A DNA stretch of 64,000 bases from Planctomycetota bacterium (GTDB lineage: Bacteria > Planctomycetota > JAJSAM01 > JAJVHW01): NCBI GenBank assembly GCA_965248445.1, contig CBDFJG010000004.1, positions 1,696,001-1,760,000 of the forward strand, in the 5' to 3' direction. The position numbers were made by a program, and so were the translations under genes. The notes beneath the pieces were generated by a model, which worked only from the letters and a program-made list of their open reading frames with translations, ran no database searches and was not told the origin of the DNA. Of this stretch, positions 16,245 to 59,710 are shown one piece after another (position 1 is the stretch's first letter; each line of letters begins with the position of its first letter).

Positions 16245-16383
16245 CACGCCCGTGCGTCACGCGGATCGCGATGCGATCCCCGCGCCGCACGGCGATCGCG
16301 TGTCTCCCTCCTACGCGGCCTCCGGCCGCGTAGGAGGGCTGCGTTCACGGCGCTTGCTACGCAACCCCCGCGCCCTCGCGATT
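16245..16383 (+). repeat. Dispersed ~140-bp structured repeat, copy A
   Basis: Aligns with the reverse complement of 59571-59710; contains perfect 15-bp hairpin CCCTCCTACGCGGCC-TCC-GGCCGCGTAGGAGGG. Confidence 0.85.
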
Positions 16384-16449
16384 CGGACTCTCCCTCGCAA
16401 TCCCTGTAGCGGCGGGCCGCTGCCCCGCCCGCGATCGGACGAGAGGCCC

Positions 16450-16983
16450 CTACTCGCGTCTCGGACTCGGCTTGCGGCTGAGGTCTGCGCGCACGCCGAT
16501 CGCGAAAATCATCGTCTGCACGGCCATCACGACAAGCGCGACCGGGATCAGGCGCTGGCGCGTGAAGGTCGTGCTCTCGAACGCCGCGAGAGTGAATGCG
16601 AACACGCCGAGCATGCCGAGCATGAATGCCCACCGGTAGTACGGCAGGCCCTCACGTCGTCGCACCCTCGCGCCCAGCGTGGACCACATCGCGCCGAGGA
16701 ACCCGAACAGCATTGCGAGGCTGATCGGAATCCACGTCGCGAGTCCGAGGATGCGTTCCGGAGTGATGAACCCGGTCGGGCCGTCGCCGCCGAACATCCC
16801 GAGCGACGCTGCAACCAGGTTTCCGAGAAGCACGATCACGACGACAATCACGATCCAGCCGATCCACGACTTCGGAATGAACGAGAAGTTGAATCCGTTG
16901 CCGCCGCCGGACTTTTTGCCCCGCCCGCGCCCACGTCCGCGACCCCCGCCGTGACCGTCTCCCCCGCCTGCCGTATCCGTCAC
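16450..16983 (-). CDS. Four-TM membrane protein with Gly/Arg-rich N-terminus
   Basis: GTGA overlap with larE stop; four hydrophobic segments. Confidence 0.75.
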   Translation of the reverse strand: MTDTAGGGDGHGGGRGRGRGRGKKSGGGNGFNFSFIPKSWIGWIVIVVVIVLLGNLVAASLGMFGGDGPTGFITPERILGLATWIPISLAMLFGFLGAMWSTLGARVRRREGLPYYRWAFMLGMLGVFAFTLAAFESTTFTRQRLIPVALVVMAVQTMIFAIGVRADLSRKPSPRRE

Positions 16984-17864
16984 GCGCGCACCTCGTCAGT
17001 CGTCACGTCCGCGGCCACCGGATCGCCCAGATTCACGACACGCGGAGTCGCGCGATCCGCACCTCCGGCACTGCGGCCGTCGAGGTCGAGTAAGACGGTC
17101 GTGAACCCCGCGGCTTGCACCGCGGAGACGAGCGCCTCGCGCCGCTCCAGCGCACGGGCGACGTCCTCGGCTGCCGAGAGCTCGACACGCGCCGCGGCGC
17201 CGTGATGGCGCACGCGGAGGTCATCGAAGCCGAGAACCCGCAGCGCCTCTTCGGCGCGCTCCACCTGATGCAGGCGCTGAGGCGTCACGGCCGAGCCGTG
17301 CGGAATGCGTGACGCGAGACAGGGGGCGGCCGGTTTGCTCGCGGTCGGCAGACCCAGCTCCCGCGAGACCGTCCGCACATCGGCCTTCGTGAGGCCGGCC
17401 TCGCGCAGCGGCGACCGCACACCGAGTTCGTGCGCCGCGCGAACCCCCGGACGGTCGGCCACGTCGTCGTCCGCGTTCAATCCGTCCGCGACGTGCGCGA
17501 CACCGTTCGCAGTCGCCCATGCCCCGATCCGCTCGTAGAGCTCGGACTTACAGAAGTAGCAGCGGTCGGGTGCGTTCCGCACATAGCGCGGATCCTCGAG
17601 CTCGCGGGTCGGGATCCGCTCGAGCCGGAGGCCCGTGATGCGGGCCACGCGCTCGGCATCGTCCAGTTCCCGCGCCGCCAGGCTGTCGCTCACGCCGGTG
17701 ACGGCAACGGCGTCGTCCCCGAGCACGCGGTACGCGAAGGCGGCCAGGAACGACGAGTCCACACCGCCGCTCAGCGCGACGGCGACCGTGCGCATCTCGC
17801 GCAGGATGGTCTCGAGACGCGAGAGGCGCACGTCGAGGCAATCCGCCGCTCTCCCTTCCTTCAT
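16980..17864 (-). CDS. larE: ATP-dependent sulfur transferase LarE (PP-loop)
   Basis: ALSGGVDS PP-loop, DRCYFCK, DGLNADD..DRPG, KPAAPCLASRIP, DLRVRHH. Confidence 0.9.
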   Translation of the reverse strand: MKEGRAADCLDVRLSRLETILREMRTVAVALSGGVDSSFLAAFAYRVLGDDAVAVTGVSDSLAARELDDAERVARITGLRLERIPTRELEDPRYVRNAPDRCYFCKSELYERIGAWATANGVAHVADGLNADDDVADRPGVRAAHELGVRSPLREAGLTKADVRTVSRELGLPTASKPAAPCLASRIPHGSAVTPQRLHQVERAEEALRVLGFDDLRVRHHGAAARVELSAAEDVARALERREALVSAVQAAGFTTVLLDLDGRSAGGADRATPRVVNLGDPVAADVTTDEVRA

Positions 17865-17965
17865 CGGAAGCACTCTATAGCGGCCGGTGACGCTCCGGGA
17901 GTCCTGCGCCGCCCCTGATCCGCGCGACGCCCCTGTTCCGCGCGAGGGCAGGTAGATTGCAAAGC

Positions 17966-19540
17966 ATGCGCGCGCCTCCCACCGCCACTCGTCACGCCGC
18001 GGCGATCACAGCGATGCTGGCGGCGGTCTTGTTCGTAGCCGCCGCTCGGCCGGTGGCGGCCCGGGCAGCGGACGACGGCGCGGATGCAGATCCGTACGGC
18101 AAGATCCTGGCCGATTACCGCCAGCGCATGCGGACCGCGAACGTCGAGCGGGCCGTGGACGCGCTCCAACTGCTCGATCCGCAGAACTCACGGTCGCTGC
18201 CGGAGATCGTGAAGCTCCTGGCGACCGGACACTGGTACGTGCGAGGCCACGCCATCGATGCCCTGGCCACGGTGCCCGCGGGCCCGCTGCGCTCGGAGAT
18301 GCGACTCCACCTGATCACTCACGAGGACCCGTGGGTGCGCGAGGGCATCGCCTACGCCATGTCGACAGGGCCCGTTGCGGGAGACGCCGAGGCGCTCGCC
18401 GCCGCGATGGACGATGCGGACTTCCGGGTGCGCCGCACGGCCTCGCGGGCACTCGGCGAGATCCTGTCGAAGGAGGGCGTCCAGCGCCTTGTGCGCGCCA
18501 TCGCCGAGGAACAGGACGTCCGCGTTGTCGTCTGGGTGCGCAGGAGCCTCCGCATGATCGCGGGCAGCGACCTCGGCGCCGATCCGGCCGTCTGGCAGGA
18601 GTGGTGGAAGCGCCACAAGGACCGGCCCGAGTGGACGAGCCAGGGCGACGAAGTTTCCCGGGGCGACTTCGCCGGCGTTCCGCTCGAGACCTTCACCGTC
18701 GAATCGAACGTGACGTCCGAGGACGCGGAGCGCCGCCGCAACCGGCCGGACCTCTTCGTGCTCGCGCCGTTCGGTTACTCGCACGACTACTTCCGTCCGT
18801 ATCTCGACGAGGCGTCCCGCTTCGTGCGCATCACGTACGTGACGCTGCCAAGCGTCCGGGAACTGACCCGCTCGACGGGGTTCGGGTCTTCCATTCCCGT
18901 CTACCCCGTGGCGAAGCTCGCCAAGGCGCTCGACGCGCTGCGCGAGCAGAAGGAGAAGGACCAGATCATCCTGATGGCGCCGGGACCGGCGGTGTGGATC
19001 GCCGAGTACTACGCGCTCAAGCACGAGAAGCACGTCGCGGGGCTCGTGCTGTCCAACGGCTGGCTCGACCGCACCTCGTACGCCAACGGTCTCATGCGGC
19101 TTGCGCGAGACGGCACCGGACCGGAGAAGTGGGCAGCCGGACTGCTCATGGGCCGCGGCACCCCACGGCGTGACGAGCTGGAGGGTCAGCGCATGCGCCG
19201 CATCTTCCTGACGCACGCTCTGACCGACCGGCGGGACAGCGAGGCGTGGCGGCTGTGGAAGGACACCGCGCGCGACCACGGTTTCGTGACCGTGCCGCCC
19301 ATCGACTTCAGCCGGCGAGTGCGCATCGAGAAGCCCACGCTGTTCACGTTCCCCGGCGCGTCACCCCTCGGCGGCGGCACGCCGGAGGACCTCCGCCGCA
19401 TCCGTGAGTCGTTCAAGAAGCCGCCCCCGATCACCGCCGTGCTGCGCGACTCGAGGGGCCTGCTGCACGTGGAAGAGCCGCAGGAGTTCCTGCGCGTGCT
19501 GGAGGGCTTCCTCCGGTACATGGGACTGATCCCGCGCTGA
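17966..19540 (+). CDS. Exported HEAT-repeat protein fused to a degenerate alpha/beta-hydrolase domain
   Basis: Signal peptide; HEAT repeats (DFRVRRTASRALGEI) with cap WQEWW; C-terminal hydrolase-like segments IEKPTLF and HVEEPQEFLRVLEGFL. Confidence 0.75.
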   Translation: MRAPPTATRHAAAITAMLAAVLFVAAARPVAARAADDGADADPYGKILADYRQRMRTANVERAVDALQLLDPQNSRSLPEIVKLLATGHWYVRGHAIDALATVPAGPLRSEMRLHLITHEDPWVREGIAYAMSTGPVAGDAEALAAAMDDADFRVRRTASRALGEILSKEGVQRLVRAIAEEQDVRVVVWVRRSLRMIAGSDLGADPAVWQEWWKRHKDRPEWTSQGDEVSRGDFAGVPLETFTVESNVTSEDAERRRNRPDLFVLAPFGYSHDYFRPYLDEASRFVRITYVTLPSVRELTRSTGFGSSIPVYPVAKLAKALDALREQKEKDQIILMAPGPAVWIAEYYALKHEKHVAGLVLSNGWLDRTSYANGLMRLARDGTGPEKWAAGLLMGRGTPRRDELEGQRMRRIFLTHALTDRRDSEAWRLWKDTARDHGFVTVPPIDFSRRVRIEKPTLFTFPGASPLGGGTPEDLRRIRESFKKPPPITAVLRDSRGLLHVEEPQEFLRVLEGFLRYMGLIPR

Positions 19541-19569
19541 GGCGGAGAACGAGACCTGAGGAGGGGACC

Positions 19570-20262
19570 ATGAGGACGATCGCACTCGCGACGGCGCTGC
19601 TCGCCACGCTTCTCATCGCATCGCCGCTGTCCGCGCAGGAGGGCGGAGCGCCCGATCTCGCGACACGTTGCGAGGCCGTGAAGTTCGAGCACCGGGGAAC
19701 GGACGGCGACAGTCTGTTGCCGGCGGGTCTGGTCGAGATCCGCGACGAACTCCGCGAACGCGGCGTCCAGTCGCTCGACGACATCGAAGCGGCGATTCCG
19801 AAGAGCGCGAATCTGCGCCGCCTGGTGCCGTTCCTGGTCGACGAGTGGCCGTGCGACAGGACCCGCGCGCTGCTCATCGGGCTCCTCTCGGACCGGGAGG
19901 ACTTCATCGCGTCGTTCGCCGCGTTCGCGCTGGGCGAGGTCGGCGGCAAGGAGGTCGTCGGCCCGCTGATCGAGGCCGCGACAAAGCGCCCGGGGACCCT
20001 GCGCCACAACGTCCTGACCGCGCTACCGGGTCTGGGCGGTCTCCGCAGGGCCGGATTGGAACTGGCGCTCACCTCCACGGGCGACAGCGAGGCCTGGGTG
20101 CGGCAGTCGGCCTACTCGTGCCTCGAGTCGGCGGACTGGGACAAGGCGATCGCGGAAGCGATCCCGGCGCTCGAGGAGGCCGTCGAGTTCGAGAGCGTCG
20201 TGGACGCCAAGATCGCCGGCCAGCGCGCGCTTCGGGTCCTGCGCGCCCGCTCGGAGAAGTAG
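19570..20262 (+). CDS. Exported HEAT-repeat protein
   Basis: SD GGAGG; signal peptide ending PLSA-Q; HEAT-like motifs AAFALGEVGG and DSEAWVRQSA. Confidence 0.75.
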   Translation: MRTIALATALLATLLIASPLSAQEGGAPDLATRCEAVKFEHRGTDGDSLLPAGLVEIRDELRERGVQSLDDIEAAIPKSANLRRLVPFLVDEWPCDRTRALLIGLLSDREDFIASFAAFALGEVGGKEVVGPLIEAATKRPGTLRHNVLTALPGLGGLRRAGLELALTSTGDSEAWVRQSAYSCLESADWDKAIAEAIPALEEAVEFESVVDAKIAGQRALRVLRARSEK

Positions 20263-20350
20263 CCGCAGGGCGAGAGCCGCCGGGCCCTCGCCAAGAGGGA
20301 GCGAAACGTAGAGCCCGTCCCGTACGTTGCAGGGTGGAGAGGAAGCGCCC

Positions 20351-21520
20351 ATGCCCCATGCCCCATCGCACGTCTCGACGGTCTGCCTGTTGCTCGCCGG
20401 CCTGGCCGTCGTAGCCGCCGCCGGGGGCGAGACCGGGAAGGTGCCCGTGACCGAGCACTTCGCCGGGAAGGTCACCAAGATCACGCCCGAGGGCGAGATC
20501 GAGATCCGCTACGACTTCGAGGAGAAGGGCCAGATGGCCGACTTCGAGAAGTCGCTGCCGTTCCGGGCCGTCTCGACGGTCGAGGGCACGATCGAGAATG
20601 GGCGTGTGCGCTTGAAGGGCACGGGAAGCCTGCGCCACAAGGCGGTCTTCAAGGACTACGTCGCGGCGTCGGCCAAGTTCACGCCCTACATCCCGTACGA
20701 CTTCGGGTTCTCCGTGTCGGAGGAGAGCAAGAGCGAGATCTTCACGCTGTACTGCGTGCGCGACCGCTACTTCAGCAAGGGCGACAACGTCAATCACCCG
20801 CAGAACATGGTGATCAAGTTCATCCCGCGGGACGCGGGGCGACGCAAGGACGGCTACCAGGACTGGCGTTACTGCGGTTCGCGGGGCGAGAAGCCGGGCC
20901 TGCGCGGCGGCCAGACGATCGACGTGCAGATCCGCCGCGGCGAGAACAAGAGCTTCATGCAGATCGACGACACGTTCACGGCCAAGGGTAAGGAGGCCGC
21001 CCGCGACCTCACGACGCAGATGCTCGGCATCTACGGCTACAAGGCGGACACCCGGTTCGACGACCTGGTGGTCACCGGCGTCCTCCATCCCTCGTACGTG
21101 AAGCGGCACAACCTCGATCTCGAGGTCGAGCCGGAGGTGGTCGAGGACCCCGACGCGGCGCCCAAGAGCGACTACTCCGAAGAAGCGGCCGGACTGTTCC
21201 GCGCGAGGATCGCCGCGTATCCGCGCCAGACGAAGCGCCCGGCCATGGGCAAGATGCTTGCCGACGTCGAGGTGCCGCTGGCGTTGCGTCAGGAGGCCGC
21301 GGAGCGGATCAAGGCGAACCGGGACAAGAAGATGGTCCCTTACCTCCTCGACGCCCTGAACTCCGACGACCAGCCAACCCGCGGCCTGGGGGCTGACCTC
21401 GTCAAGGGGCTCACAAACAGCACGTTCGGCTTCCGGCCCGGCGACAAGCCCGAGAAGCGCAAGAAGGCGGTCCAGAAGCTCCTGGCCCACGTCCAGAAGA
21501 ACGCCCGCGACTTCCGATAG
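20351..21520 (+). CDS. Exported protein: beta-sandwich (LamG/lectin-like) domain plus C-terminal HEAT repeat
   Basis: Signal peptide; YDFE...RFDDLVVTG beta-rich domain; VPYLLDALNSDDQPTR HEAT repeat. Confidence 0.65.
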   Translation: MPHAPSHVSTVCLLLAGLAVVAAAGGETGKVPVTEHFAGKVTKITPEGEIEIRYDFEEKGQMADFEKSLPFRAVSTVEGTIENGRVRLKGTGSLRHKAVFKDYVAASAKFTPYIPYDFGFSVSEESKSEIFTLYCVRDRYFSKGDNVNHPQNMVIKFIPRDAGRRKDGYQDWRYCGSRGEKPGLRGGQTIDVQIRRGENKSFMQIDDTFTAKGKEAARDLTTQMLGIYGYKADTRFDDLVVTGVLHPSYVKRHNLDLEVEPEVVEDPDAAPKSDYSEEAAGLFRARIAAYPRQTKRPAMGKMLADVEVPLALRQEAAERIKANRDKKMVPYLLDALNSDDQPTRGLGADLVKGLTNSTFGFRPGDKPEKRKKAVQKLLAHVQKNARDFR

Positions 21521-21601
21521 GGCTCCGTCAGGCTCGGAACAGCCCCGCGAGCCCGCAGGGCTTTCAGAACCGGGTCCTTCAGGTGACAATCCCAGGGTCC
21601 G

Positions 21602-21629
21602 GTGAACCTGACGGCAGGCTCGGACGTCC
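21602..21629 (+). promoter_or_regulatory. Putative ECF-sigma promoter (GTGAACC-N16-CGTCC)
   Basis: Same -35 box and spacing as the site upstream of the ECF sigma gene. Confidence 0.45.
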
Positions 21630-21705
21630 TACAGAACGACCCCCTCGCAGATTCGGCGAAACCGCCGGAACGCGCGAGGGTTGTGAGTCCGGAGGTAGAA
21701 GGACC

Positions 21706-22143
21706 ATGAAGAAGTTCATCCTGATCGCATTCGCGGCGCTCTCCTGCGTGGTGGCGGCGACGACCCTCGGCCCGGAGGCCAGCTACGCCCGTGGCGGCGG
21801 TGGCGGCGGTGGCGGTGGTCGCGGCGGTGGTCGCGGCGGCGGTCGTGGTGGTCGTGGTGGTCGTGGTGGTGGTCGTGGTGGCGGCGGCGTCGGTGGCGGC
21901 ATGACAGGCCGCGGCGGCCGCACCTCGAACGCACGCTTCGACGGCAAGAACACCTCGGGCTACATCGAGCAACTCCAGCGCGAGCAGGCGGACGCAGAAC
22001 GTCCGGACTTCCAGGCGGGCAACCGTGATGAGTCGCTGCGGCGCGAGCGGGACCGCTCGCGGGCGGCGGACCTGGCGGCCGAGCGCAACGACGCCGCAGC
22101 CGAGCGACGCGCCGACCAGGAAGCCGGCGCGCACCCGTACTGA
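21706..22143 (+). CDS. Small exported Gly/Arg (RGG)-rich protein
   Basis: Purine-rich GGAGG/AAGGA leader; MKKFILIAFAALSCVVAA signal; GGR repeats followed by a charged helix. Confidence 0.75.
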   Translation: MKKFILIAFAALSCVVAATTLGPEASYARGGGGGGGGGRGGGRGGGRGGRGGRGGGRGGGGVGGGMTGRGGRTSNARFDGKNTSGYIEQLQREQADAERPDFQAGNRDESLRRERDRSRAADLAAERNDAAAERRADQEAGAHPY

Positions 22144-22259
22144 TCGATGACCTCTTCGAGGTCCCTCCTCGAGCGCTGTATGACGCGCACGGGTAGGGAC
22201 CTCGTTCTCCATCCGGGCTTTCGCTCTGCAAAGCCTCTCCTCCAACTGCGAGGTGCGCC

Positions 22260-25234: not shown

Positions 25235-25297
25235 CCGCGACAAAAGGGGGCCTCTGCAACGGCCGCGACGCGAGTCCGCGTGCCAGCGGACGAGTGG

Positions 25298-25324
25298 GCA
25301 GAAGCCGTAAACAACGGCTTCTGC
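25298..25324. terminator. Hairpin between convergent genes (possible terminator)
   Basis: GCAGAAGCCGT-AAACA-ACGGCTTCTGC, perfect 11-bp stem; no clear U-tract. Confidence 0.4.
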
Positions 25325-25376
25325 AGCGGCACGGACGATCTGCGAGCCCCCCACCCATCGTCTCACCCCAACGGCT

Positions 25377-27151: not shown

Positions 27152-27207
27152 GCCCACGATCCTACTGTGGGGCTCCGATGCTCCCGAGACGCGTAACATG
27201 GCGCGCG

Positions 27208-32640: not shown

Positions 32641-32982
32641 GGTTGGATGCGCCGCTCCGAGGGTCCCTCGGAGGCGGACCCGAGAGGTTACGAGAAGCAC
32701 CGACACAGGCCGAGCGCCGGCTCGGTCCGCGGACCGAATTCCGCGCGCGATGGCTCGGGGGTGGACACCCGCCCGGACCGGGGCTTCCGGTGCCGGCCTT
32801 CGCGTTCCCGCTACCTGCGAAGCCAAGGCGGCGCGGCGGTTGCCACGCGACCGCCGTGACGCCGTAGTAGGCCGACCGGGCGTCCCGACCGAGAGGGATC
32901 ACCCTCCTCAGACGACCGCTTCGGGCGCTCGGACGGCCCCAGCAACACGTAACGCGCGGAAGTTGCCCCGCAACTGACGTGA

Positions 32983-33778: not shown

Positions 33779-35479
33779 TCACTCGTTCCCCACCGAGTCG
33801 AGGAAGCCCTCGAGCTTCCTCGCTCGCACCGGGTGCTGGAGCTTTCGCACCGCCTTCGCTTCGATCTGGCGCACGCGCTCGCGCGTCACCTTGAAGATGC
33901 GACCCACCTCCTCGAGCGTGTAGGTGTAGCCGTCGCCGATGCCGTACCGCAGCTTGATGATCTCGCGCTCGCGGAACGTCAGCGTCTGCAGGACCTTCTC
34001 GATCTTGTCCTTCAGCATCTCGTGCGTGGCCGCGTTCACCGGCGACTCGGCGCTGCCGTCCTCGATGAAGTCGCCGAAGTAGCTGTCGTCGCTGTCGCCG
34101 ATCGGGCAGTCCAGCGAGATCGGATGCTTGGCGATCTTGAAGACGCGCTTCGTCTCGTCGACCGAGATCTCGGACGCGGCCGCGATCTCCTCGATCGTCG
34201 GTTCGCGACCCTTCTTCTGCACCAGGTCCTTGGTGACGTTGCGCAGCTTCGACATCGTCTCGATCATGTGGACCGGGATACGGATAGTGCGCGCCTGATC
34301 GGCGATCGACCGCGTGATGGCCTGGCGGATCCACCAGGTCGCGTACGTCGAGAACTTGTATCCGCGGCGGAACTCGTACTTCTCGACCGCCTTCATCAGG
34401 CCGGTGTTGCCCTCCTGGATGAGGTCGAGGAACGAGAGTCCGCGGTTCCTGTACTTCTTCGCGATCGAGACCACGAGGCGCAGGTTGCCGCTCGAGAGGT
34501 TCTGCTTCGCCAGTTCGTAGCCGTTGAACTCGTGGCGGATCTGCTGGCGCAGGCGGCGGCGCAGGCGAGCCGGCGCCTCGCACGCGTTCAGCGTGATCTG
34601 CGCGATGCGGTCCTTGACCTCTTCGCGCTCCTGCACGACGGCGGCGCTCGACGAGCGCGACGCATCGAGGTCACGCACTCGGCGCTCAAGGCGGTCGAGC
34701 TCGCGCACGGTCGCAGCGATCTCGTCCATCACAGGCTTCAGCTTCTTGATCTGGATGTTCAGCTCTTCGAGCAGCCTGCGGCCGCGGCGCCGGCGCTCGC
34801 AAAGCCGGCGGGACACGAGGACGCGCTTCTTCTTGCTGCGCGCGACGGTCAGCTCGAGTAGGTCACCGCGCATCGCGTTCAACATGGCGCGAAGAGTGGC
34901 GACGTGCTCCGGCAGCCGCTGCTGCGTGTTCTGCTTGCTGTTGTCGATCTGCGGGTTGACCTTGAGGGTCCGGTCGAACGCGAGTTCACCGCGCATCACG
35001 TCCTCGAGCAGGCGCACCGACAGTTCGAGCGCCATGCCGCAGGACAGCAACTTCTCGCGATAGCGCTTCCGCGTCCGCTCGATGGTCTTCGCAAGCCAGA
35101 TCTCCTGCTCGCGCGTCAGCAACGGGATCTCGCCCATCTGCGTCAGGTACATGCGGACGGGATCGTCGATGCGCTCGACGGGCGTCTGCATCGTGAGCGG
35201 ATCGATGGCCGACTTCTGCACCGGCTCGAGCGTCTTCTTCTGGCGCAGCTGACGCGCATCGACGTCTTCGGCGGCTGTCGCCTCGGCGTCGTACGTGTGC
35301 GCCTCCTCGACGAGCTCGATGTTCAGCTCGTCGAGCTGCTGCGCGATCTTGTCGAGTGCCTGCTCCGACGCAGTGATCTCATCGGGCAGCATCCGATGCA
35401 CTTCGTCGATGGTGACGTAGCCCTTGCGGCGCCCCTCTTTGATGAGGGCCTTGAGCTCGGGGTCGATCCGGTCGTTCAT
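33779..35479 (-). CDS. rpoD: RNA polymerase primary sigma factor
   Basis: Region 1.1; [52 protein letters not shown]. Confidence 0.97.
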
Positions 35480-35530
35480 GGGCGGATTCGTGCTCCGGTC
35501 GGGGTCGTCAGAAACGGCGGAGAAGGGCGC

Positions 35531-35572
35531 CCTGTGCACCCCTCACTGGATCCTGTGCACCCCTCACTGGAA
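35531..35572. repeat. 21-bp tandem duplication in rpoD leader
   Basis: CCTGTGCACCCCTCACTGGA(T/A) x2. Confidence 0.9.
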
Positions 35573-35738
35573 GACGTGCGGCGGAAAGCTGTGCCGAACT
35601 CCTGAATCTACAGTCTCAATGCGATGGGGAGAAGCTCCCACCGCTTTGACTCATTCCGAGAATCGGACCTCCCGGAGCGTACCCCACGATTCGGACGAGC
35701 CCATTCGGACGAGAGCGGCGAGCCTGGACAGGGTCGCA

Positions 35739-37607
35739 CTAAGCGGGGTTCCCGTCGGGGGCTCCCGGGAGTTGATCCGGGCTGCCCTCCGGTCGATCTG
35801 CTGCCTCCGAATCGAGGGGCTGGCCCGCCGCGCCGGACGCCCGGCGCCGGTGGAAGTCGACGAGGTCGCGCAGCCGGGCCGCCTCCTCGGCTCCCCCGTC
35901 CGCCTCGCGCAGGGCGTCGTGGAGTCCGCGAGCCTCGACGCGCTGGCGGAGCCTGTCGAGGCAGTCGCGGCCCTGGCGCAGCAGGTCGGTCTTGCCGGCG
36001 GCCTGGTCGAGGAGCGCCGCGCCGAGAGCCGCCAGTTCGGGATCAGCGAGGCCTCCCACGACGGCCTCGCCGGTGCTGCCTCGCTCGCGACCGTCGCGGA
36101 GCGCCGACACCAGGCCGCGCACGAGCGAGTGTCCGAGGAGCCCCGCGTCCTCGTCCGTGATCTGGTCGAGGAACTCGGTGGAGCAGAGCGCCGACTCGAG
36201 GAGCAGTCTCTCGAGAGTCGTCGGCGGCCGCTCGGGCGGACGGACCTCGTCGTCAGAGGCAGGAGCGGGCTGAGCGGGTAGCGCCGCGGCCGGGCGGGCG
36301 GGCCGGCGCAGGGCGTTCAGGCGCTCCTCGACCGCGTGCTCGGGGATGCCGAGTTCATCGGCGAGTTGGCGCACGAGGAGCGCAGAGCGAACCGGGTCGG
36401 TCACGTCGGCGACGACCTGCAACACGTCCGCCGCCGCTGCAGAGAGCGCAGCCGTCCCCTCGCCGCCGTGCGCGGCCACCCGCGCCCGTACCAAGAAGCG
36501 GAAGGCGTCCTGGCTCGTGTCGAGGTGGCCGCGCAGCGCGTCGAGCCCGCCGCCGACGACGATGTCGGCCGGGTCGCTGCCGGGGGGCAGAGTGACGACC
36601 CGCGGGTTCGCGTCTTGGGCGAGGAACGCCGCGGACGCCCGCTCGGCCGCGCGCTGGCCAGCTGCATCGCCGTCGTAGAGCAGGAACACGCGGCCGGGCA
36701 ACCTGACGTGCCGAGCGAGGAGCGCCGCCTGCCGCTCGGTCAGCGCCGTGCCGAGACCGGCAACCGCCACCTTGTACCCGTGCTGGTGGGCCAGGACCAC
36801 GTCGGTGTAGCCCTCCATGACGGCCGCCTCGCGGTCCTCCTGCATGGCTGCGCGCGCGAGGTGCAGGGCGTAGAGGTGGCGGCCCTTCTGGAAGAGCGGC
36901 GTCTCCGGCGAGTTCAGGTACTTCGGCTCGTCGTCGCCGAGCGTGCGGGCGCCGAATGCGATCACGCGGCCCTGCGTGTCGGCGATGGGGAACACGACGC
37001 GATCACGAAAACGGTCGTAGGTCTTCTCGCGGTCTCCATCCGTGCGATGCACCACGAGACCGGCGTCCACGAGTTCGGGGACGCTGAATCCGCCACGTTG
37101 TGCTGCTCCGAGGAGGCGGTCCCACCCGGGCGGCGCGTACCCGAGCCGGAAGTCGCGCGCGGTCTCGCCGCTGATCTCCCGGCGCTGGAAGTACGCGCGG
37201 GCGCGCTCTCCGTCCGGCCCGCGGAGCGCGGCCTCGAAGAAGCGGCACGCCCACTCGCACGCCTCGAGCAGGCGCGTGCGGCGGCCCGTGCGCTTCGCCT
37301 CCTCGGGAGTCGCGGACGGAGGCGAGATGCCGGCTTGGCGGGCGAGCTGCAGGACGGCTTCGCGGAACGTCGCGCCCTCCTTCTCGCAGACGAAGCCGAA
37401 TACGTTCCCGGACTTGCCGCAGCCGAAGCACTTCCACGTCGTTGTCTCGGGCCACACGACGAACGACGGCGTCTTCTCGCGGTGGAACGGGCACAGGCCC
37501 TTGAGGGAGCCGCCCTGTTTGCGCAGCGTCACGTGCCGTCCGATCACCTCCGCGGCGTCGACGGTCAGTCGCACCTGTTCGATGAAGTCGTCGGGGAGGA
37601 GGGCCAC
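35739..37607 (-). CDS. dnaG: DNA primase
   Basis: CPFHREKTPSF...CFGC zinc finger, DRFRDRVVFPI, PKYLNSPET, EGYTD, YDGDAAG. Confidence 0.97.
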   Translation of the reverse strand: MALLPDDFIEQVRLTVDAAEVIGRHVTLRKQGGSLKGLCPFHREKTPSFVVWPETTTWKCFGCGKSGNVFGFVCEKEGATFREAVLQLARQAGISPPSATPEEAKRTGRRTRLLEACEWACRFFEAALRGPDGERARAYFQRREISGETARDFRLGYAPPGWDRLLGAAQRGGFSVPELVDAGLVVHRTDGDREKTYDRFRDRVVFPIADTQGRVIAFGARTLGDDEPKYLNSPETPLFQKGRHLYALHLARAAMQEDREAAVMEGYTDVVLAHQHGYKVAVAGLGTALTERQAALLARHVRLPGRVFLLYDGDAAGQRAAERASAAFLAQDANPRVVTLPPGSDPADIVVGGGLDALRGHLDTSQDAFRFLVRARVAAHGGEGTAALSAAAADVLQVVADVTDPVRSALLVRQLADELGIPEHAVEERLNALRRPARPAAALPAQPAPASDDEVRPPERPPTTLERLLLESALCSTEFLDQITDEDAGLLGHSLVRGLVSALRDGRERGSTGEAVVGGLADPELAALGAALLDQAAGKTDLLRQGRDCLDRLRQRVEARGLHDALREADGGAEEAARLRDLVDFHRRRASGAAGQPLDSEAADRPEGSPDQLPGAPDGNPA

Positions 37608-41261: not shown

Positions 41262-42638
41262 GTGCAGGACGCCCCCACCACGTTCGACGGTCTCGGCCTT
41301 CCGCCGGAAATCGTCACCTCGCTCACGGACGCAGGCTTCGTCACACCGCTCCCGGTGCAGGTGCGGGCGATCCCCCCTCTCCTCGAGGGCGCGAGCGTGG
41401 TCGTATCGGCGGAGACGGGCAGCGGCAAGACCCTGGCGTATGCCGCCCCTCTCGTCGCGTCGCTCCTGGACGGCCCCCCGGCCGCGGCGCCGCGGGTGCT
41501 CGTTCTGGTACCGACCCGCGAGCTTGCGTCGCAGGTCGCCGGCGTCTTCGAGTCGGTCGGCGCCGCGCACGGCATCGTCACCGCGGCCACGCATGGCGGT
41601 ACGCCGGTCCGCATCGACGAGCGGGCGCTGGAGGCCGGTGCGCACGTCGTCGTCGCGACACCCGGCCGCCTGCGCGACCTGGCCCGGCGGGGCGCGTTCC
41701 TGTCCGGCGCGCTCGAGACGGTCGTCGTCGACGAGGCCGACCGCATGCTCGCGCGGGACTTCGCGCCCCAAGTGCGGAAGCTGATCGAGTTCGTTCCGCC
41801 CACGACGCGACTCGTCCTCTGCTCCGCCACGGTCGACAACCGCGTGCTCGATCTGGCTGCCGGACGTCTGGACGACGCGGTGCGCGTCCACGGCTCGCTC
41901 GAGGGTGACCGCGCGCTCCCCCCGGGCATCCGTCACACCGCAGTCGTCGTGCGGCAACCGCTCAAGCGCCTGCTGCTGGTGCACCTGCTCACGACGGATG
42001 AGACCACACGGCTTCTGGTGTTCGTCGGCTCTCGGTTTCGCTGCCGTGCGCTCGCCGAGGCGCTTGTGGCGGACGGCGTGACCGCCGAGTCGCTCTCAGG
42101 CGGACGCAAGCAGGAGGACCGCGACGCGGCGCTGGCGGCGTTCCGCGCGGGGCGGCTCCGCGTGCTCGTCGCCACCGATCTGGCCGAGCGCGGCATCGAC
42201 CTGCCCGGACTGACGCACGTCGTGAACTTCGACCTGCCGAGGAAGGTGACGCGCTACGCGCACCGGGTGGGGCGCACGGCACGCGCGTTCGGCGAGGGCG
42301 TGGTTCTCGCGTTCGTCACGCCACCGGAACAGGGGTTCCTGGACGCGGCGAGGAAGCTCCTCGACGTGCCGATCGAACTGGCCGAGCTACCGGGGTTCGA
42401 CTTCGAGCAGAAGCCCGTCGGCCCGGACCCGCTGGTCGAACCGCTGGATCTATCCAAGGGCAGGTCGGCGAGGACACCAGATGGACCGAAACGGCCACGC
42501 ACGGGCAACCCCGCACAGCAGAAGAGGGCTTTCTGGGATCGCGCCCGCAAGTCACGCGACGAGCGCCGCGCGCGACGAGGAGGCCCACCGGCGCGCGGTA
42601 AGCGCGGCGGACCGAAGCCGGACAAGCGGAGCAAGTAG
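41262..42638 (+). CDS. DEAD-box RNA helicase (RhlE-like)
   Basis: Q motif, AETGSGKT, PTRELA, TPGRL, DEAD, SAT, HRVGRTAR; basic C-terminal tail. Confidence 0.95.
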   Translation: MQDAPTTFDGLGLPPEIVTSLTDAGFVTPLPVQVRAIPPLLEGASVVVSAETGSGKTLAYAAPLVASLLDGPPAAAPRVLVLVPTRELASQVAGVFESVGAAHGIVTAATHGGTPVRIDERALEAGAHVVVATPGRLRDLARRGAFLSGALETVVVDEADRMLARDFAPQVRKLIEFVPPTTRLVLCSATVDNRVLDLAAGRLDDAVRVHGSLEGDRALPPGIRHTAVVVRQPLKRLLLVHLLTTDETTRLLVFVGSRFRCRALAEALVADGVTAESLSGGRKQEDRDAALAAFRAGRLRVLVATDLAERGIDLPGLTHVVNFDLPRKVTRYAHRVGRTARAFGEGVVLAFVTPPEQGFLDAARKLLDVPIELAELPGFDFEQKPVGPDPLVEPLDLSKGRSARTPDGPKRPRTGNPAQQKRAFWDRARKSRDERRARRGGPPARGKRGGPKPDKRSK

Positions 42639-49680: not shown

Positions 49681-49686
49681 CGCCGC

Positions 49687-50742: not shown

Positions 50743-50763
50743 GGCGAGGCCGCGTGGTCCTGC

Positions 50764-52782: not shown

Positions 52783-52940
52783 GGTAGGAGTCTCCTCTCG
52801 ATCGGGTTTGCGGGCGGCGTCCGCCACCCAGCTTCCGGGGAGGGCGGTTCTACCGCAAGCGAGGGGGCGGATGCAGCCGTTCGTCCCCACTCTCGGGCCC
52901 GCTCTCGGGCCCGTGACCGCCCCCAGCGTGACGCGGCCAG

Positions 52941-53837: not shown

Positions 53838-53863
53838 AGCGATGACACCCCGCGCGGGAGTCG

Positions 53864-56833
53864 CTAGGTAGGACGGTCCTGTTCGGGGGCTGGTTCCGGC
53901 GCCGCATCGGCGCCGGCGCCGTCTGCCACGACTTCGGGGGCGGGCGGCGCAGCCGCCGCCGCGCTCGCAGCCTCGACCGGAAGCTCAGCGGGCGTCTCGG
54001 GCTTGGGCTTCGTAGGCTTGGGCTTCGCAGCCGTCTTGCTCGGCTTCGGCTTCGTCTCTGCCTTCGTCTCCGGCTTCGTCTCCGCCTTTAGCTTCGGCTT
54101 CCTGGGCTTCGCAGCCCTCGCCTTCTTCGCGGGCTTGGCGGGCTTCGCGGCTTTCGGCGGAGGCGGCGGCTCGAGTCCGAGTTTCTCGCGCAACGCAACC
54201 AACTGCTGGTGGAACGGGTCGTGTTCGCGGGGCACGCCGCGGATCGCCGGTGTGCGGACAGAGGGCCGTCCTCCGCCGGGTCTGCCGCGATCGCCCCGTC
54301 GGCCGCGGTCCCCGCGTCCACCGGACCGCTGCCCTCCCGGACTCCGACCTCCCGGCCGGCCGCCGCGCCGGGGCTCGCGACCCGGACCACCCGGACCGCC
54401 GGAACGACCCCGCTCGCCGCCTTCTTGCCGCGGCGGCGGTCGCTCTGACTCGGGTGGCGGCGGCAACAGCGCCTTCACGCTCAGGGAGAGACGCCGCTTC
54501 TCCGGCTCGACGCCGACGACGCGCACGCGAACCGGGTCCCCGACCGACACCACGGCCGCCGGATCCTCCACGTAGCCATGCGCCAGTTGCGAGACGTGGA
54601 CCAGACCCTGCTCGCGCAACCCGACGTCCACGAACGCTCCGAAGTTCGACAGACCGGCGACGACGCCGTCGAGTTCCATGCCCTCCTGGACGTCGTTGAA
54701 CCGCCGCACGCCGGGGTTGTGCACGGGCGGCTTGAACGCACCACGGGGATCGCGGCCGCCGCGGGCAAGCCCGCGCAGCACCTGACGGACGCTGTCCACG
54801 GAGTGAACCTCGCCGGCGATCTTTGCGACGTCCACCGCTGACTCGAAGTCCTTGCGGCCGATGAGTTCGCGGATCTCCACGCCCACCTTGGTTGCGACCG
54901 CGCGGGCGATGGGCAACGCGGTCGGGTGCACGCCGCTCGCGTCGAGCGCCTCGCTGCCACCGGCCACGCGCATGAAGCCCGCGGCGCGCTGCCAGGCGTC
55001 GTCCGACACGCCCTCGACCGCGCGCACGTCCGTGCGGCAGGCGAACGCTCCGTGCGTGTTGCGGTGCGTCTCGATGGCCTGGGCGGACGGGCCGTCCAGT
55101 CCGGGCAGGCGCGCGAGGATGCGGGCGGGCACGGCGTTGACGTCGACGCCCACGGCGGCGAGGCACTCCGTCGCCACCTCGTCGAGGGAACGCCGCAACT
55201 CGCCCCGGTCCACGTCCCGCTGATTGGGGCCGAGCGGGAGGTCCGTCATGTCGTAGCGCGCCAACTCGAGCAGCGGATCCTGCACGCGACGGGCCAGCGC
55301 CACAGCCACACGAGCCGTGACCGGGAGTTCGGGCGCGGCCGCTTTGCCCGCATCCGTGCCCGCGTACCGCTCCGCCGCGGCCTCGTGCACCGGTGCGAGC
55401 ACCGCGCCCAGCTCCCGGTTCGCCGCGAGCACGTCCCCCACCCACGACCGGAGCGCCGTCGCACGGCCGCTGCCGGCGACGGCCACGAGCTTGGCACCGC
55501 TCTCGGCGATCACGTCAGTCAGGAGCTTCGCGGCCTTCTCCCGAGCTTCGCCCTCCTGCGAAGGCTTCATGGTCTCGGTACGGCCGGCGCGGCCCTCCGC
55601 GTCCACGGCGAGCATGCGTGCGGTCCCGGCGGCTCCCGGGACCACCGCAACCACCGCGACGCCGCCCGCAGGGGGTGCCATCAACCGCGCGCGAAGGCCG
55701 TCGGCAAAGCGCGACACGAGACCGCGTTCGAGCGACCGCTTGCGTTCGTTGACGAGTTCGTTCGACGCCTCGCGCACCATGCGGTCGAGCGCGGCTTCGG
55801 TTGCCGTCTTCAGCAGGTCCGCGTAAGGGTGCGCGACATCGACGCCGAGCGGCCCCTCGAGGATGGCACTCTTCGTCTCGTCGGGCGGCACGATGCGTAC
55901 GTCGAGCGCACCGCTCTTCTTGCCGCGCCGCACAAGCATCAGCCGGCGCGCGTCGACCTGGCCGAGCGGGATGCTGAGTGCCGCAACGGGTTGCAGATGC
56001 GGTTTCAATTCGCGCCCCGCACTCGCGGACGTCGTCAGCACGCCGCGCTTGCGCAACGCACGGCGAAGCTGCTGACGCGCGAGCGCGTTGTCCGCGATGG
56101 TCTGCGCGACGAGACCGGTCAGGCGCGTGTGCTGATCCGCCGCGGTCGGTGGCGCGCCGTCCGTGCCGCAGAACGGTGCAAGCAGGTCCTCGACGGTCGG
56201 AGTCTCGGCTCCGGGTGTCTCGGCTCCGGGTGTCTCGGCACCGGGTGTCTCGGCACCGGGTGTCTCGGTCGCCGGTGTCTCGGTCGCCGGTGTCTCGGTC
56301 GCGGGTGTCTCGGTCGCGGGTACCTCGGTCGCGGGTGTCTCGGTCGCGGGTACCTCGGTCGCGGGCACCTCGGTCGCGGGCGTCGCGGTCGCCGGTGTCG
56401 CGGCGACGATCTGTGCCGCGACCGCCGACATGGGGTCCTCCGCCGCCGCGCGGCCGCGGCGGGCGTCTCTGATCGGCCGCAGCAGATCTTCGAGCAGCGA
56501 GAGATCGCGCGTCTCGCGAACCTGCTTCGCCAGTGCGTCAGTCATCAGGCTCTCGGACTCGAGAGCGCGACGCGTGGTGCCGCGGCGGCGCGCAAGTTCG
56601 CGCTCTTCGCGCCAGGCGTGCCGCAGCTTGCGGAACGCGACTGCGTCCAAGTCGCCGAGCAGATCGCGGCGGAAGTGCCACAGGAAGGCCGGCTCCTCGC
56701 CCGCCTCGAGGGCAGCGAGCAGTGGTTCCATGCGATCAGCCACCGCCGTGAAGCGGCGTCTCATCACACCAAGGAGTTCGTCGTCTTCGTCCGCCAAGAG
56801 GGCCTCGTCGTCGGGGAGGGGGAGTCGGCGCAT
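53864..56833 (-). CDS. tex: Tex/YhgF-family transcription accessory protein with S1 domain (divergent)
   Basis: ARRVQDPLLEL, VGVDVN, LDASGVHP, RDPR, S1 domain NFGAFVDVG..GLVHVSQL; low-complexity tail. Confidence 0.88.
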   Translation of the reverse strand: MRRLPLPDDEALLADEDDELLGVMRRRFTAVADRMEPLLAALEAGEEPAFLWHFRRDLLGDLDAVAFRKLRHAWREERELARRRGTTRRALESESLMTDALAKQVRETRDLSLLEDLLRPIRDARRGRAAAEDPMSAVAAQIVAATPATATPATEVPATEVPATETPATEVPATETPATETPATETPATETPGAETPGAETPGAETPGAETPTVEDLLAPFCGTDGAPPTAADQHTRLTGLVAQTIADNALARQQLRRALRKRGVLTTSASAGRELKPHLQPVAALSIPLGQVDARRLMLVRRGKKSGALDVRIVPPDETKSAILEGPLGVDVAHPYADLLKTATEAALDRMVREASNELVNERKRSLERGLVSRFADGLRARLMAPPAGGVAVVAVVPGAAGTARMLAVDAEGRAGRTETMKPSQEGEAREKAAKLLTDVIAESGAKLVAVAGSGRATALRSWVGDVLAANRELGAVLAPVHEAAAERYAGTDAGKAAAPELPVTARVAVALARRVQDPLLELARYDMTDLPLGPNQRDVDRGELRRSLDEVATECLAAVGVDVNAVPARILARLPGLDGPSAQAIETHRNTHGAFACRTDVRAVEGVSDDAWQRAAGFMRVAGGSEALDASGVHPTALPIARAVATKVGVEIRELIGRKDFESAVDVAKIAGEVHSVDSVRQVLRGLARGGRDPRGAFKPPVHNPGVRRFNDVQEGMELDGVVAGLSNFGAFVDVGLREQGLVHVSQLAHGYVEDPAAVVSVGDPVRVRVVGVEPEKRRLSLSVKALLPPPPESERPPPRQEGGERGRSGGPGGPGREPRRGGRPGGRSPGGQRSGGRGDRGRRGDRGRPGGGRPSVRTPAIRGVPREHDPFHQQLVALREKLGLEPPPPPKAAKPAKPAKKARAAKPRKPKLKAETKPETKAETKPKPSKTAAKPKPTKPKPETPAELPVEAASAAAAAPPAPEVVADGAGADAAPEPAPEQDRPT
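56200..56403 (-). repeat. In-frame 15-bp VNTR in tex (PATE(T/V)/PGAET, about 13-14 units)
   Basis: Repeats of GGTGTCTCGG(T/C)nnn on the + strand. Confidence 0.95.
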
Positions 56834-56933
56834 CGTACGAGAAGCTGCCTGGGGGCGAAACGAAGCCGCCCCTGATTGCGCGCCGGCGGATACAAGGGAA
56901 CACCGCGATGTCGCACGACGTGGAGGTGGAACG

Positions 56934-59027
56934 GTGAGGCTTCGGCCGCGGGGGACCGGCGAGCAACTCGTCGGCTTCCTGAGGGCCGCCGTGATCGGTC
57001 TCTGCGGGGGGCTTGCGTCGCTGGGGTTCCGCAGCGCCACCGACTGGGTCCAAAAGCTGATCGGCCTGGGCGGGGAGGTGCTCGAGGGCGCGCGCGTGAA
57101 CATCCTCGCGGGGGCGCGCCACGTCGGCTCCGAGACGCCGTGGCTGATGGTGCTCATCCCGGCTGCCGGCGGCCTGGCCGCGGCGCTCGTCCACCGGTTC
57201 TGCGTCAGGGGGGAATCGGGGACGGGCCTCTCCGACGTGATGGAAGCCGTCTCGTTGCGCAGCGGCCCGATCCGCCTGCGGACCGCGCTCATGCGAGCGG
57301 CGTCGTCTCTCGGGATCATCGCAACCGGCGGCTCCGTCGGACGCGAGGGTCCGATCATCACGATCTCCGCCGCGGCATCTTCGACGCTGACGCGGCTCCT
57401 GCGTGCGCCGGCACGGGACCGTGGCCTCCTCCTCGGGTGTGGTGTCGCTGCCGGGTTCGCGGCGGCGTACGGCGCCCCCATCGCCGGCGCGCTGTTCGCC
57501 ATGGAGGTCGTTCTCGGGAACTTCGCGGTCGAGCTGTTCGCGCCCGTCGTCATCGCGTCGGTCACGAGCACGCTGTTCACGTGGCACCTGCGCGGCAACG
57601 AGCCGCTCTATCAGATGCCTCACTATCAGTTGGAGACGCTGGCGGAGCTCGTCCCGTACCTCTTCCTCGGTGTCGTTGCGGGGTTCGTGGCTGTCGGCCT
57701 GCAGCGCCTGCTCTCGCTCTCGGAGCGCTTCTTCCAGTCGTTACCGGGCGACCGCATCTGGAAGACGGTTGTGGGCGGCGCGCTCATCGGGGGAATCGCG
57801 CTCGCGTTTCCAGAGGTGTGCGGCAACGGCTACGAGGCCCTCAGCGAGTTGCTGAACGGTCGCGGCCCGCGATTCGAGGAGGCCGAGTGGGGACACCTTG
57901 TGCTCATCCTCGTCGCGCTGGCGCTCGTCAAGGCGTTCGGCACGGCGATCACCGTCGGATCCGGCGGTGCGGGCGGCGTGTTCACGCCGAGCCTGTTCAT
58001 CGGCGCCGGACTGGGCGGCGCGGTCGGCGTGCTGGTGAACCACGTCGCTCCGGATATTTCGGGCGACTACGGCGGGTATGCGCTCGTCGGCATGGGCTGT
58101 GTCGTCGCCGGCACCACGCGCGCACCGATCATGGCGATCGTGGTGATGTACGAACTGACCGGTGACTACGGCATCGTGGCGCCGCTGATGCTCGGGTGCG
58201 TCGCGTCGTCGGTCGTGGCCCGTGCGATCTACGAGCCCAGCATCTACACGGAAGAGCTGCGCGCGCGCGGGGTCACGCAGCCGGTCGGACTCGAGGAGAC
58301 CGTCCTCGTGACCACGCGTGTCGGCGACGTGATGCGCGAGGACCCCATGGTCTGGGTCGGCCGTTCCATGACGTACGCCGAGATCGTCCCGCTCGCAAGC
58401 GCCGCACGCGTCTCGGTCGTCTACGTGTGCGACGACCTGCGCAGACTGCGGGGGGCAATCCGCGTGCAGAGTCTGATCGACCTCGCTTCCTTCGGCGATC
58501 TCGGGCCCGGAATCGTGGCGGAGGACCTCGCAGCCCCGGTCGAGGCGGTGCTTCGTGGCGACCGGCTCTCCGACGTCTTCGACCAGTTCGGCCGCTCCGA
58601 CATCGACGAACGGCCAGTCGTGGATGACGAGCAGAGCCTCCACCTGAGGGGTGTCGTGACACGGCGGGACGTCATGGCAGCACTCCACCTGGAAGTGCTG
58701 AAGACGCAGAACCTGCGTGCCAAGTTTGTGCACCGGGACGACCCCGACGGCGGCGCGGACTACATCGAGCTGCCCGAGGGAGCCGAAGTGGCGCGCGTCC
58801 GGGTGCACCCGGATCACGTCGGGCGAACGCTGTTCGAGTGCCAGATCCGCACGAACCACCGCGTGACGGTGCTGAACGTACTGCGCAAGGACGTGGACGA
58901 CCACGAGATGCGAGTCGTGCCGGACAGTGAGTTCGCGCTCCGTGCGGGCGACTCACTCATCGTGATCGGCGACCTGGAGGCACTGGCGAAATGGCGGCGG
59001 GAGACGGAGGGCGGAGGCAACACGTGA
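56934..59027 (+). CDS. ClC chloride channel/antiporter with CBS pair and TrkA-C domain
   Basis: SD GGAGG before GTG; GREGP, LFAMEVV, GGVFTPSLFIG, SIYT; CBS domains; C-terminal RCK-C (VGRTL...LRAGDSLIVIG). Confidence 0.93.
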   Translation: MRLRPRGTGEQLVGFLRAAVIGLCGGLASLGFRSATDWVQKLIGLGGEVLEGARVNILAGARHVGSETPWLMVLIPAAGGLAAALVHRFCVRGESGTGLSDVMEAVSLRSGPIRLRTALMRAASSLGIIATGGSVGREGPIITISAAASSTLTRLLRAPARDRGLLLGCGVAAGFAAAYGAPIAGALFAMEVVLGNFAVELFAPVVIASVTSTLFTWHLRGNEPLYQMPHYQLETLAELVPYLFLGVVAGFVAVGLQRLLSLSERFFQSLPGDRIWKTVVGGALIGGIALAFPEVCGNGYEALSELLNGRGPRFEEAEWGHLVLILVALALVKAFGTAITVGSGGAGGVFTPSLFIGAGLGGAVGVLVNHVAPDISGDYGGYALVGMGCVVAGTTRAPIMAIVVMYELTGDYGIVAPLMLGCVASSVVARAIYEPSIYTEELRARGVTQPVGLEETVLVTTRVGDVMREDPMVWVGRSMTYAEIVPLASAARVSVVYVCDDLRRLRGAIRVQSLIDLASFGDLGPGIVAEDLAAPVEAVLRGDRLSDVFDQFGRSDIDERPVVDDEQSLHLRGVVTRRDVMAALHLEVLKTQNLRAKFVHRDDPDGGADYIELPEGAEVARVRVHPDHVGRTLFECQIRTNHRVTVLNVLRKDVDDHEMRVVPDSEFALRAGDSLIVIGDLEALAKWRRETEGGGNT

Positions 59028-59518
59028 GTGTCCCCGTGGTCCTGATCACCGCCGCGCACTCGAACGCGGGCAAGACCACCGTCGCCGTCGCGCTCATCGA
59101 GGCACTCACAGCCCGCGGTACGCGCGTGGCCTACGTGAAGCGCGCGCACCACGCGGTGGACGCCGACACGGCCGGCAAGGACACGCACCGCGCCCGGACG
59201 GCGGGCGCCGTAGCGACGGTCCTCGGTTCCACCGAGGTCGCGGCCGTGTTCGTTCCACAGCCGTCGCGCGATCCGGGCGACCTCGCGGCGCTCGCCTGTG
59301 CGACCGCAGACGCAGACGTCGTGCTCGTCGAGGGCGGCAAGGAGTACACGGAGCACCCGCGCATCGTGGTCGTGCCGGACGGCGAGGCGTTCGAGACGCT
59401 TCCCGATGCCGTGGTCCTGGCCGTGGTCGGCCGCGGCGTCAGCGCCCCGGACGGAGTGCCCGTGATCGCGCCCGACGAGATCGGCCGGCTGGCCGATCTG
59501 TTTGTTCACATCAAGTAG
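59024..59518 (+). CDS. mobB: Molybdopterin-guanine dinucleotide biosynthesis protein B
   Basis: SNAGKTT, VAYVKRAHH, DTAGKDT, DVVLVEGGK; GTGA overlap with ClC gene. Confidence 0.85.
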   Translation: MSVPVVLITAAHSNAGKTTVAVALIEALTARGTRVAYVKRAHHAVDADTAGKDTHRARTAGAVATVLGSTEVAAVFVPQPSRDPGDLAALACATADADVVLVEGGKEYTEHPRIVVVPDGEAFETLPDAVVLAVVGRGVSAPDGVPVIAPDEIGRLADLFVHIK

Positions 59519-59570
59519 AGGCGAGCTTCTCACTCCGCGCGCGCAACGGAGTCGCTCTCCAGATGCAGCG

Positions 59571-59710
59571 AGTAGCGAGGGCGCGCGGATTGCGGAGCAA
59601 GGCGCGTGACCGCAGCCCTCCGTAGCGGTCGGAGACCGCGTAGGAGGGAGACATGCGCCCGAAGCGTGGCCGAGGATCGCCGCGCGATCCGCAGGCGACG
59701 CGCGCGAGTG
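59571..59710 (-). repeat. Dispersed ~140-bp structured repeat, copy B
   Basis: Reverse complement aligns with 16245-16383 (shared TGTCTCCCTCCTACGCGG, GGAGGGCTGCG, GCGCCCTCGC). Confidence 0.85.

Follow-up and report, generated by a model that had tools for sequence, protein, structure and literature searches.

The window analysed here, a 64,000-nt stretch of Planctomycetota bacterium DNA (GCA_965248445.1, contig CBDFJG010000004.1, positions 1,696,001 to 1,760,000 of the forward strand), carries two copies of a structured repeat of about 140 nt. The family to which they belong is a new lineage-specific mosaic of the BIME/REP (bacterial interspersed mosaic element/repetitive extragenic palindrome) kind, in which only the tail is a true GTAG-tagged REP; by the tests applied here it is not a GTAG/CGTC REP, a MITE (a miniature transposable element with inverted repeats), an attC site or an Rfam family. 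We lean, by somewhat more than even chances, toward the view that this non-coding repeat has spread as folded single-stranded DNA (ssDNA) by means of a trans-acting enzyme, and that its stems are kept paired through template switching of the polymerase.

The genome that holds the window (G000; 5.4 Mb, 68.7% GC, 92% complete) contains 83 copies, as found with a profile built from 41 seed matches (nhmmer) and likewise with a covariance model, where the first-pass annotation of the window had noted only two; 55 copies are near full-length. Pairwise identity among 39 aligned copies is only 54-90% (mean 69%), and nothing therefore hints at a burst in recent times. The layout comprises a hairpin K1, a middle hairpin H2 and a hairpin K2, often followed by the GTAG-tagged REP. 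The hairpins K1 and K2, each 31 nt long, are homologous to one another and have the base GKCAC...CGCGCC (read as GTCAC or GGCAC, the preceding base being variable), a mid-stem that is variable yet paired, and a 3-nt loop. Two extra modules, termed A and B, also occur. The members of the family within the window are as follows:

16245..16385, + strand: copy 1 of the K1-H2-K2 repeat, starting 2 nt past the TAG (16240-16242) of a 412-amino-acid gene, 15004-16242(+)
16256..16286, + strand: K1 hairpin of copy 1, base GKCAC...CGCGCC, 3-nt loop GAT; the stem runs 6 bp further outward
16306..16338, + strand: H2 of copy 1, loop TCC, perfect 15-bp stem
16344..16374, + strand: K2 hairpin of copy 1, the homologue of K1, loop TAC
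16406..16431, + strand: GTAG-tagged REP after copy 1, at the fixed spacing of the family
16440..16453, - strand: partial inverted REP; its GTAG forms the stop of the gene 16983-16450, which is convergent
25258..25329, - strand: a lone module A, belonging to the same mosaic family, in a convergent gap
32830..32860, - strand: a further, lone K hairpin, whose intergenic surroundings are different and do not align
59569..59710, - strand: copy 2 of the K1-H2-K2 repeat, without a REP behind it, starting 9 nt past the TAG of gene 60403-59720(-)
59580..59610, - strand: K2 hairpin of copy 2, loop TCC
59616..59648, - strand: H2 of copy 2, with loop TCC and the internal loop TAC/TAC
59668..59697, - strand: K1 hairpin of copy 2, subfamily variant of the base, loop GCG
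59711..59723, - strand: REP stub preceding copy 2, whose GTAG contains the TAG stop of gene 60403-59720

The two copies are 78.3% identical across 143 nt (E 7e-26), which agrees with the three-quarters judged by eye in the first-pass annotation, and the close start behind a stop codon in the sense of the gene, the convergent gaps and the differing K1 loops were also described correctly. The C-G to T-A swap reported for the second hairpin is there, but its short simple stem proved to be a 15-position stem with an internal loop; in copy 1 this stem is perfect, owing to TAC/GTA in place of the usual TAC/TAC internal loop. The conserved 3' tail is present in both copies and is not a plain tail but a third hairpin, homologous to the first, while the REP behind copy 1 and the REP stub before copy 2 had been overlooked. 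Short-read contigs of the same sample show 0 differences at the copy 1 locus, which rules out a long-read error and is not independent support; no joint skipping copy 1 was found in the DNA contigs of that sample.

Modules A (44 profile matches genome-wide) and B (27) and a longer K form combine with K1-H2-K2 at 146 loci, as single, nested and inverted units, head-to-head doublets and tandem arrays. The conserved linker behind K2 leads to a GTAG REP at 29-32 nt in 19/64 copies, and a REP lies within 200 nt in 25/64; from the side of the REPs, 28 of the 57 of tail type in G000 (at most 4 mismatches) are found near a K1-H2-K2 copy, and a strict GTAG REP pattern gives 45 matches vs 3 for the control. 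The tail module alone combines a 20-40 bp palindrome, a 5' GTAG tag and many extragenic copies, whereas the 140-nt core has three hairpins in place of the tagged single short stem-loop of a GTAG/CGTC REP. Dispersed extragenic palindromes, bias to convergent gaps, shuffled modules, doublets and tandem arrays link the family to BIMEs and REPINs with GTAG REPs and RAYT (REP-associated tyrosine transposase), as these are presented in the cited accounts (PMC3733652, PMC3333891, PMC8266576); the conserved stem mismatch, the real GTAG REP on about a third of copies and REP GTAGs that form stop codons are further likenesses. In contrast to such systems, so far as these accounts go, most copies have one REP or none instead of two inverted REPs, the untagged core amplifies without REPs, K stems vary freely while staying paired, and no flanked RAYT is present in G000. 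K1 and K2 also resemble the subterminal, imperfect hairpins in direct orientation of IS200/IS605 and its non-autonomous derivatives, which enclose a variable middle and have neither terminal inverted repeats nor, by the same description, a visible target duplication; unlike those elements, the K repeat has a variable 5' junction in place of a fixed left end, and neither a target tetranucleotide nor a TnpA (Y1) gene with matching K flanks was found for it (PMC8266576).

Position relative to genes was counted on gene calls made within the present analysis. Convergent gaps hold 58/83 copies vs 219/1382 among all gaps over 140 nt (p 9e-26), and one copy lies in a divergent gap. An orientation bias, which the first-pass annotation had proposed to look for genome-wide, is present in tandem gaps (20 copies sense, 4 antisense; p 0.0015), and this is the real orientation test, since sense orientation is automatic in convergent gaps. 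A stop codon is within reach in 53 of 65 parsed copies (8 skipped), at a median of 11 nt before K1 (distance from -1 to 35 nt), and TAG accounts for 33 of these 53 stops vs 425/1187 in comparable genes (p 1e-4). The host genes are of mixed function, many of them housekeeping, and two copies follow tRNA genes.

The distribution of the family is narrow. The full 140-nt sequence keeps to this lineage: its model gives weak matches in 3/7 same-family genomes and nothing in 9 further genomes from the order; the full form was met at 3 loci in a metagenome scan, and the long form had no match in plasmid and phage collections or by distant blastn. The K pattern is absent from viral contigs (0), and scans of GTDB contigs gave 0 matches for the H2 pattern and 1 for that of K2. 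The Rfam scan suggested in the first pass yielded no family, with 0 matches in the window and a best E of 0.056, far below the gathering threshold, over 15 loci. K pattern counts are 46 in G000, 50 in the relative G001, 11 in the relative G006 and 9 in G105, a genome of another family, with at most 4 in 397 other sampled genomes and 0-3 in controls. The K1-middle-K2 layout recurs in G001, G006 and two further relatives (G005, G007), where the middles are genus-specific and the units often stand directly behind stop codons; tandem K arrays are also present in G001 and G006. Among 18 host genes of relatives whose orthologue in G000 is at least 45% identical, the repeat is present in G000 at 2, one of them from an 83%-identical relative and the other pilB; across genera, 1/17 orthologous gene ends share it. 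Positions are thus mostly lineage-specific, which argues for dispersal, with stable inheritance once in place. Literature searches, with subscription journals and figures outside their reach, gave no published description of the K1-H2-K2 family.

Is the repeat folded as DNA or as RNA? Judged from sequence, folding as DNA is favoured, and a secondary RNA role would be possible. Loops of K1 are GNA/GNG in 46/65 copies and loops of H2 are TCC in 40/42, whereas those of K2 are TNC in 46/60, i.e., GNA on the antisense strand. GCGNAGC is described as an unusually stable DNA mini-hairpin, whose RNA counterparts are much less stable in the same account (PMC13037366). Being C-GNA/GNG-G triloops when read on the sense or on the antisense strand, the loops point to DNA folding. 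The conserved sense mismatches A.C, T.C and C.C become G.T, G.A and G.G on the antisense strand, which folds better in 52/55 copies with both energy sets. Compared with shuffles, copy 1 has z -6.2 both as RNA and as DNA, and copy 2 has z -3.3 as RNA and -1.3 as sense DNA.

The strongest rival, in our view unlikely, holds that the repeat is an RNA element, namely a terminator or exonuclease-blocking structure of the 3' untranslated region (UTR), selected behind stops and homogenised within each genome by gene conversion. It would account for the sense bias in tandem gaps, the short distance to stops, the preference for convergent gaps and the many housekeeping hosts, as well as for retention at an orthologous site in the 83%-identical relative and, in another genus, behind pilB. 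The pneumococcal SPRITE offers a precedent: SPRITE and BOX, as portrayed in PMC3049150, are structured, lineage-restricted elements of ~100-200 nt, SPRITE lying near convergent 3' ends and BOX being modular. Yet the K repeat differs from both in being GC-rich, in its DNA-type triloops and unrelated sequence, and in having no U-rich tail, terminal inverted repeats or duplications (PMC3049150). Moreover, no consensus U-tract terminator site was found at copy 1, the loops are triloops and not RNA tetraloops, the sense strand is the weaker fold in nearly every near full-length copy, the two most variable H2 pairs lack G-U intermediates, 16/17 cross-genus orthologous ends are without the repeat, and Rfam holds no match. 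The first-pass annotation had also counted a 3'-UTR non-coding RNA among its options beside REP/BIME-like elements, of which the latter is supported, while the compensatory change is no argument for the former.

Covariation itself is real, as that annotation supposed, but weak as evidence for RNA. Pairing is kept in 94.3% of cells, and double changes occur in 16/26 pairs, a count inflated by kinship of the copies; 0/500 shuffles reach that and slid partners give 38-52%. The hairpin 2 swap corresponds to two main inherited alleles (23/42 and 11/42 copies) without G-U intermediates, and the TAC/TAC internal loop has become TAC/GTA in 3/42 copies, copy 1 included, and GTA/TAC in 1/42, i.e., three bases change at once to the reverse complement. 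The distance from the K1 loop to H2 is 27-29 nt in 52/65 copies, and the outer part differs at each locus. The outer K1 arm is complementary to the final sense codons of the host gene (score 50 vs 22.0 +- 4.2 for random gene ends) in a test on the 12 copies with coding sequence reaching into the stem, 6/12 of which are individually at p<0.05. Hosts with mirrored ends include ribosomal protein S9 and, in G006, adenosylhomocysteinase (AhcY); since we take the C-termini of both to be conserved, the arm of the repeat, not the coding arm, is the likely copy. K stems extend into the flanks by 2.0 bp vs 0.51 +- 0.08 (124 K units, mostly in relatives).

In bacteria, template switching is reported to turn inverted repeats into perfect ones (PMC5941160), and multibase compensatory changes are reported as another of its products (PMC8794818); since it yields block and compensatory changes, compensatory change alone does not show selection on RNA. 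The block flips, the absent G-U intermediates and the host-copying arm are what template switching is expected to produce. Stem-perfecting blocks, apparent compensatory doubles, loop inversion and equal-length replacement are shared with quasipalindrome switching as set out in these sources, whereas recurrence over dozens of copies of one family and import of host coding sequence set the K repeat apart from the ordinary case they describe (PMC5941160, PMC8794818); such switching explains the K stems, not the spread. Strong stem covariation, the usual proof of structured RNA, can thus arise at DNA level via template switching, which calls for caution. With dozens of parallel copies, one arm of which is fixed by coding sequence, the direction and length of switch events become measurable.

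The sequence of events that we propose would run as follows. The mover would be a trans-acting enzyme, probably of HUH type (RAYT/TnpA-like) and without a match in the G000 assembly. The direct-orientation K hairpins may be its recognised ends, similarly to the subterminal hairpins of IS200/IS605, and the invariant A.C mismatch at the K base (G.T on the antisense strand) may be the recognition feature. Copies would survive only at gene ends; there they are presumably harmless and may take on a secondary use as hairpins at transcript ends. Once the repeat has been inserted, the nascent sense strand could fold back on the GNR loop of K1, and a few bases from upstream would be copied in place of a stretch of the same length in the 3' arm. 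In G000 one form may have joined the REP and been carried by a RAYT since lost.

Several observations weigh against this reading. The close position behind stops and the sense bias also agree with an RNA-level role, the 83%-identical relative retains the repeat at the orthologous site, and no empty/filled allele pair was found, so that movement is read from patchy positions only. The K1 loop favours the sense strand and the K1 mismatches favour the antisense strand. A perfect extension of at least 4 bp occurs in only 3/54 K units of G000, a folding-based version of the host-codon test gave no significance (5.6 vs 4.9+-0.6), and gene ends are mirrored with a modest excess over the genome as a whole (8/153 vs 30/3630 at 9 nt). 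No cognate RAYT flanked by inverted REPs was found in G000 (92% complete); its sole Y1_Tnp gene (337 amino acids, L006:830-1920, G000:C4 about 497,000-498,200) has ~35-bp unrelated inverted repeats as flanks. Nor do K hairpins occur in the flanks of the fetched Y1, GIY-YIG and DUF559 loci of the order and G105, with one weak match inside one DUF559 locus. Finally, K and GTAG REP are uncoupled: G001 has 50 K and 1 REP, and the relative G004 has 0 K and 225 REP.

Other candidate enzymes in G000 gave little. The RAYT, IS200-type TnpA or IS110 genes flanked by the repeat that the first-pass annotation had proposed to look for were not found in G000, where an enzyme search detected 7 IS110, none near a module. 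The genome has 0 DUF559, 0 Y2_Tnp (the positive control being equally silent), 22 tyrosine recombinases, none adjoining a copy by coordinates, and one reverse transcriptase, ~15 kb from the nearest copy. Ssn GIY-YIG nucleases, according to the source, likewise go with hairpin repeats (SRM/NTS), which they recognise as ssDNA, but, unlike in that system, no short GIY-YIG gene was found in G000 or five K-bearing genomes, where only UvrC-sized frames occur (PMC11893778). The 84 neighbouring proteins in relatives are ordinary, the exceptions being an IS110 and an integron integrase. Gaps in G001 and G006 that looked REPtron-like were rejected, their contents being a RidA-family gene, carbonic anhydrase or promoter DNA.

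A mover of a more familiar kind is assumed by a second rival, to which we give a rather small chance: the repeat would travel as passenger DNA of the GTAG REP, and the mover would be a classical RAYT with cleavage at CT sites far 5' of it, as in BIME diversification. TnpA-REP is reported to cleave CT sites remote from the REP and to recombine mosaics (PMC3333891, PMC8266576), and the fixed 29-32 nt spacing and the head-to-head doublets around REP pairs would fit such cleavage at a distance. In G004 and G014, inverted REPs of the same GTAGGGGCG class flank Y1 genes, one of which, in G004, has a REP inside its coding sequence; RAYT genes with this class of REP occur in a sister genus. However, 39/64 copies have no same-strand REP within 200 nt, no such RAYT is found in G000, and K repeats are amplified in G001 and G006, which have about one REP apiece. 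GTAG REP counts (45 in G000, 156 in G005, 225 in G004, 1 each in G001 and G006) run independently of K counts, so that a RAYT reading the GTAG tag fails to account for the entire family, and the REP tail is a local addition.

A more radical variant appears doubtful, slightly more so than the passenger model. K1-middle-K2 would be an undescribed class of miniature ssDNA mobile element, with its paired K hairpins serving an undescribed enzyme as recognition sites, and the flank mirror would be written during insertion, by fold-back, hairpin-primed synthesis at each new junction, and not by later replication accidents. At most junctions in G001, those inside tandem arrays included, a window of 3-4 nt has been re-matched to the 5' flank of that junction, and this is what an insertion-time fold-back mechanism would produce.

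It is very improbable that the repeat is a MITE, an option named in the first pass, of the abundant DDE or IS110 insertion sequences (IS) of G000: its size fits and there are ~195 recognisable IS genes, but the alignments show no terminal inverted repeats (as the first-pass annotation had noted), variable ends and no visible target duplication, no profile match falls at an IS end, and a module is found within 300 nt of 11/195 IS genes, of which those inspected look inserted into or beside it. Equally remote is the notion that K hairpins are attC-like sites, for which speak the solitary integron integrase of G001 (TIGR02249, 403 bits), the order's only one, directly downstream of a tandem K array (L148:1340-3962, G001:C33), the direct tandem repeats, and antisense GNA loops and stem mismatches that may be reminiscent of attC; the integrase is present in 1/17 genomes of the order and 0 times in G000, no cassette array is seen by it, no RYYYAAC/GTTRRRY boxes were seen in the K unit by inspection, and chance adjacency is plausible given 50 K matches in G001.

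Preferring spread as folded ssDNA, we regard the family as an orphan repeat of a little-studied Planctomycetota lineage, REP/BIME-like without GTAG/CGTC tags, whose mover is a findable target. The surroundings of the two copies are ordinary chromosomal backbone (dnaG-rpoD pair at 33779-37607, DEAD-box helicase at 41262-42638), with no multi-copy IS protein in the window, and the GC skew is too weak for reading a replication-strand bias. All-vs-all clustering of intergenic DNA is dominated by IS ends. The IS load is heavy (~86 IS1380-like, 86 IS66-like, 15 IS1595-like and 8 IS110-like genes by N-terminal match), the family labels other than IS110 being presumptive. An IS110 lies within a K array of G001 (L142:1720-3220, G001:C23) and perhaps targets the K repeat.

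Further observations concern individual loci. One copy (L020, G000:C3:1,044,640-1,044,690) stands behind an apparent tRNA 3' half, for which ARAGORN made no call, and beside an IS1380-like element. Three type IV pilus-like genes, presumably PilB, PilT and PilC, end in a K hairpin (G000:C3 737,063; 936,058; 1,065,447), the PilB end also in G007. A second K-bearing unit, a 233-bp tandem whose middle is unrelated to H2, lies at L146:1960-2430 (G000:C3 about 312,460-312,930) and is cut by an IS1380-like element. The nine K hairpins of G105, whose stems are all different yet paired, are nested in a G-rich/C-rich repeat (L155-L163) that recalls intrastrand triplex motifs, and they often stand before genes rather than after stops.

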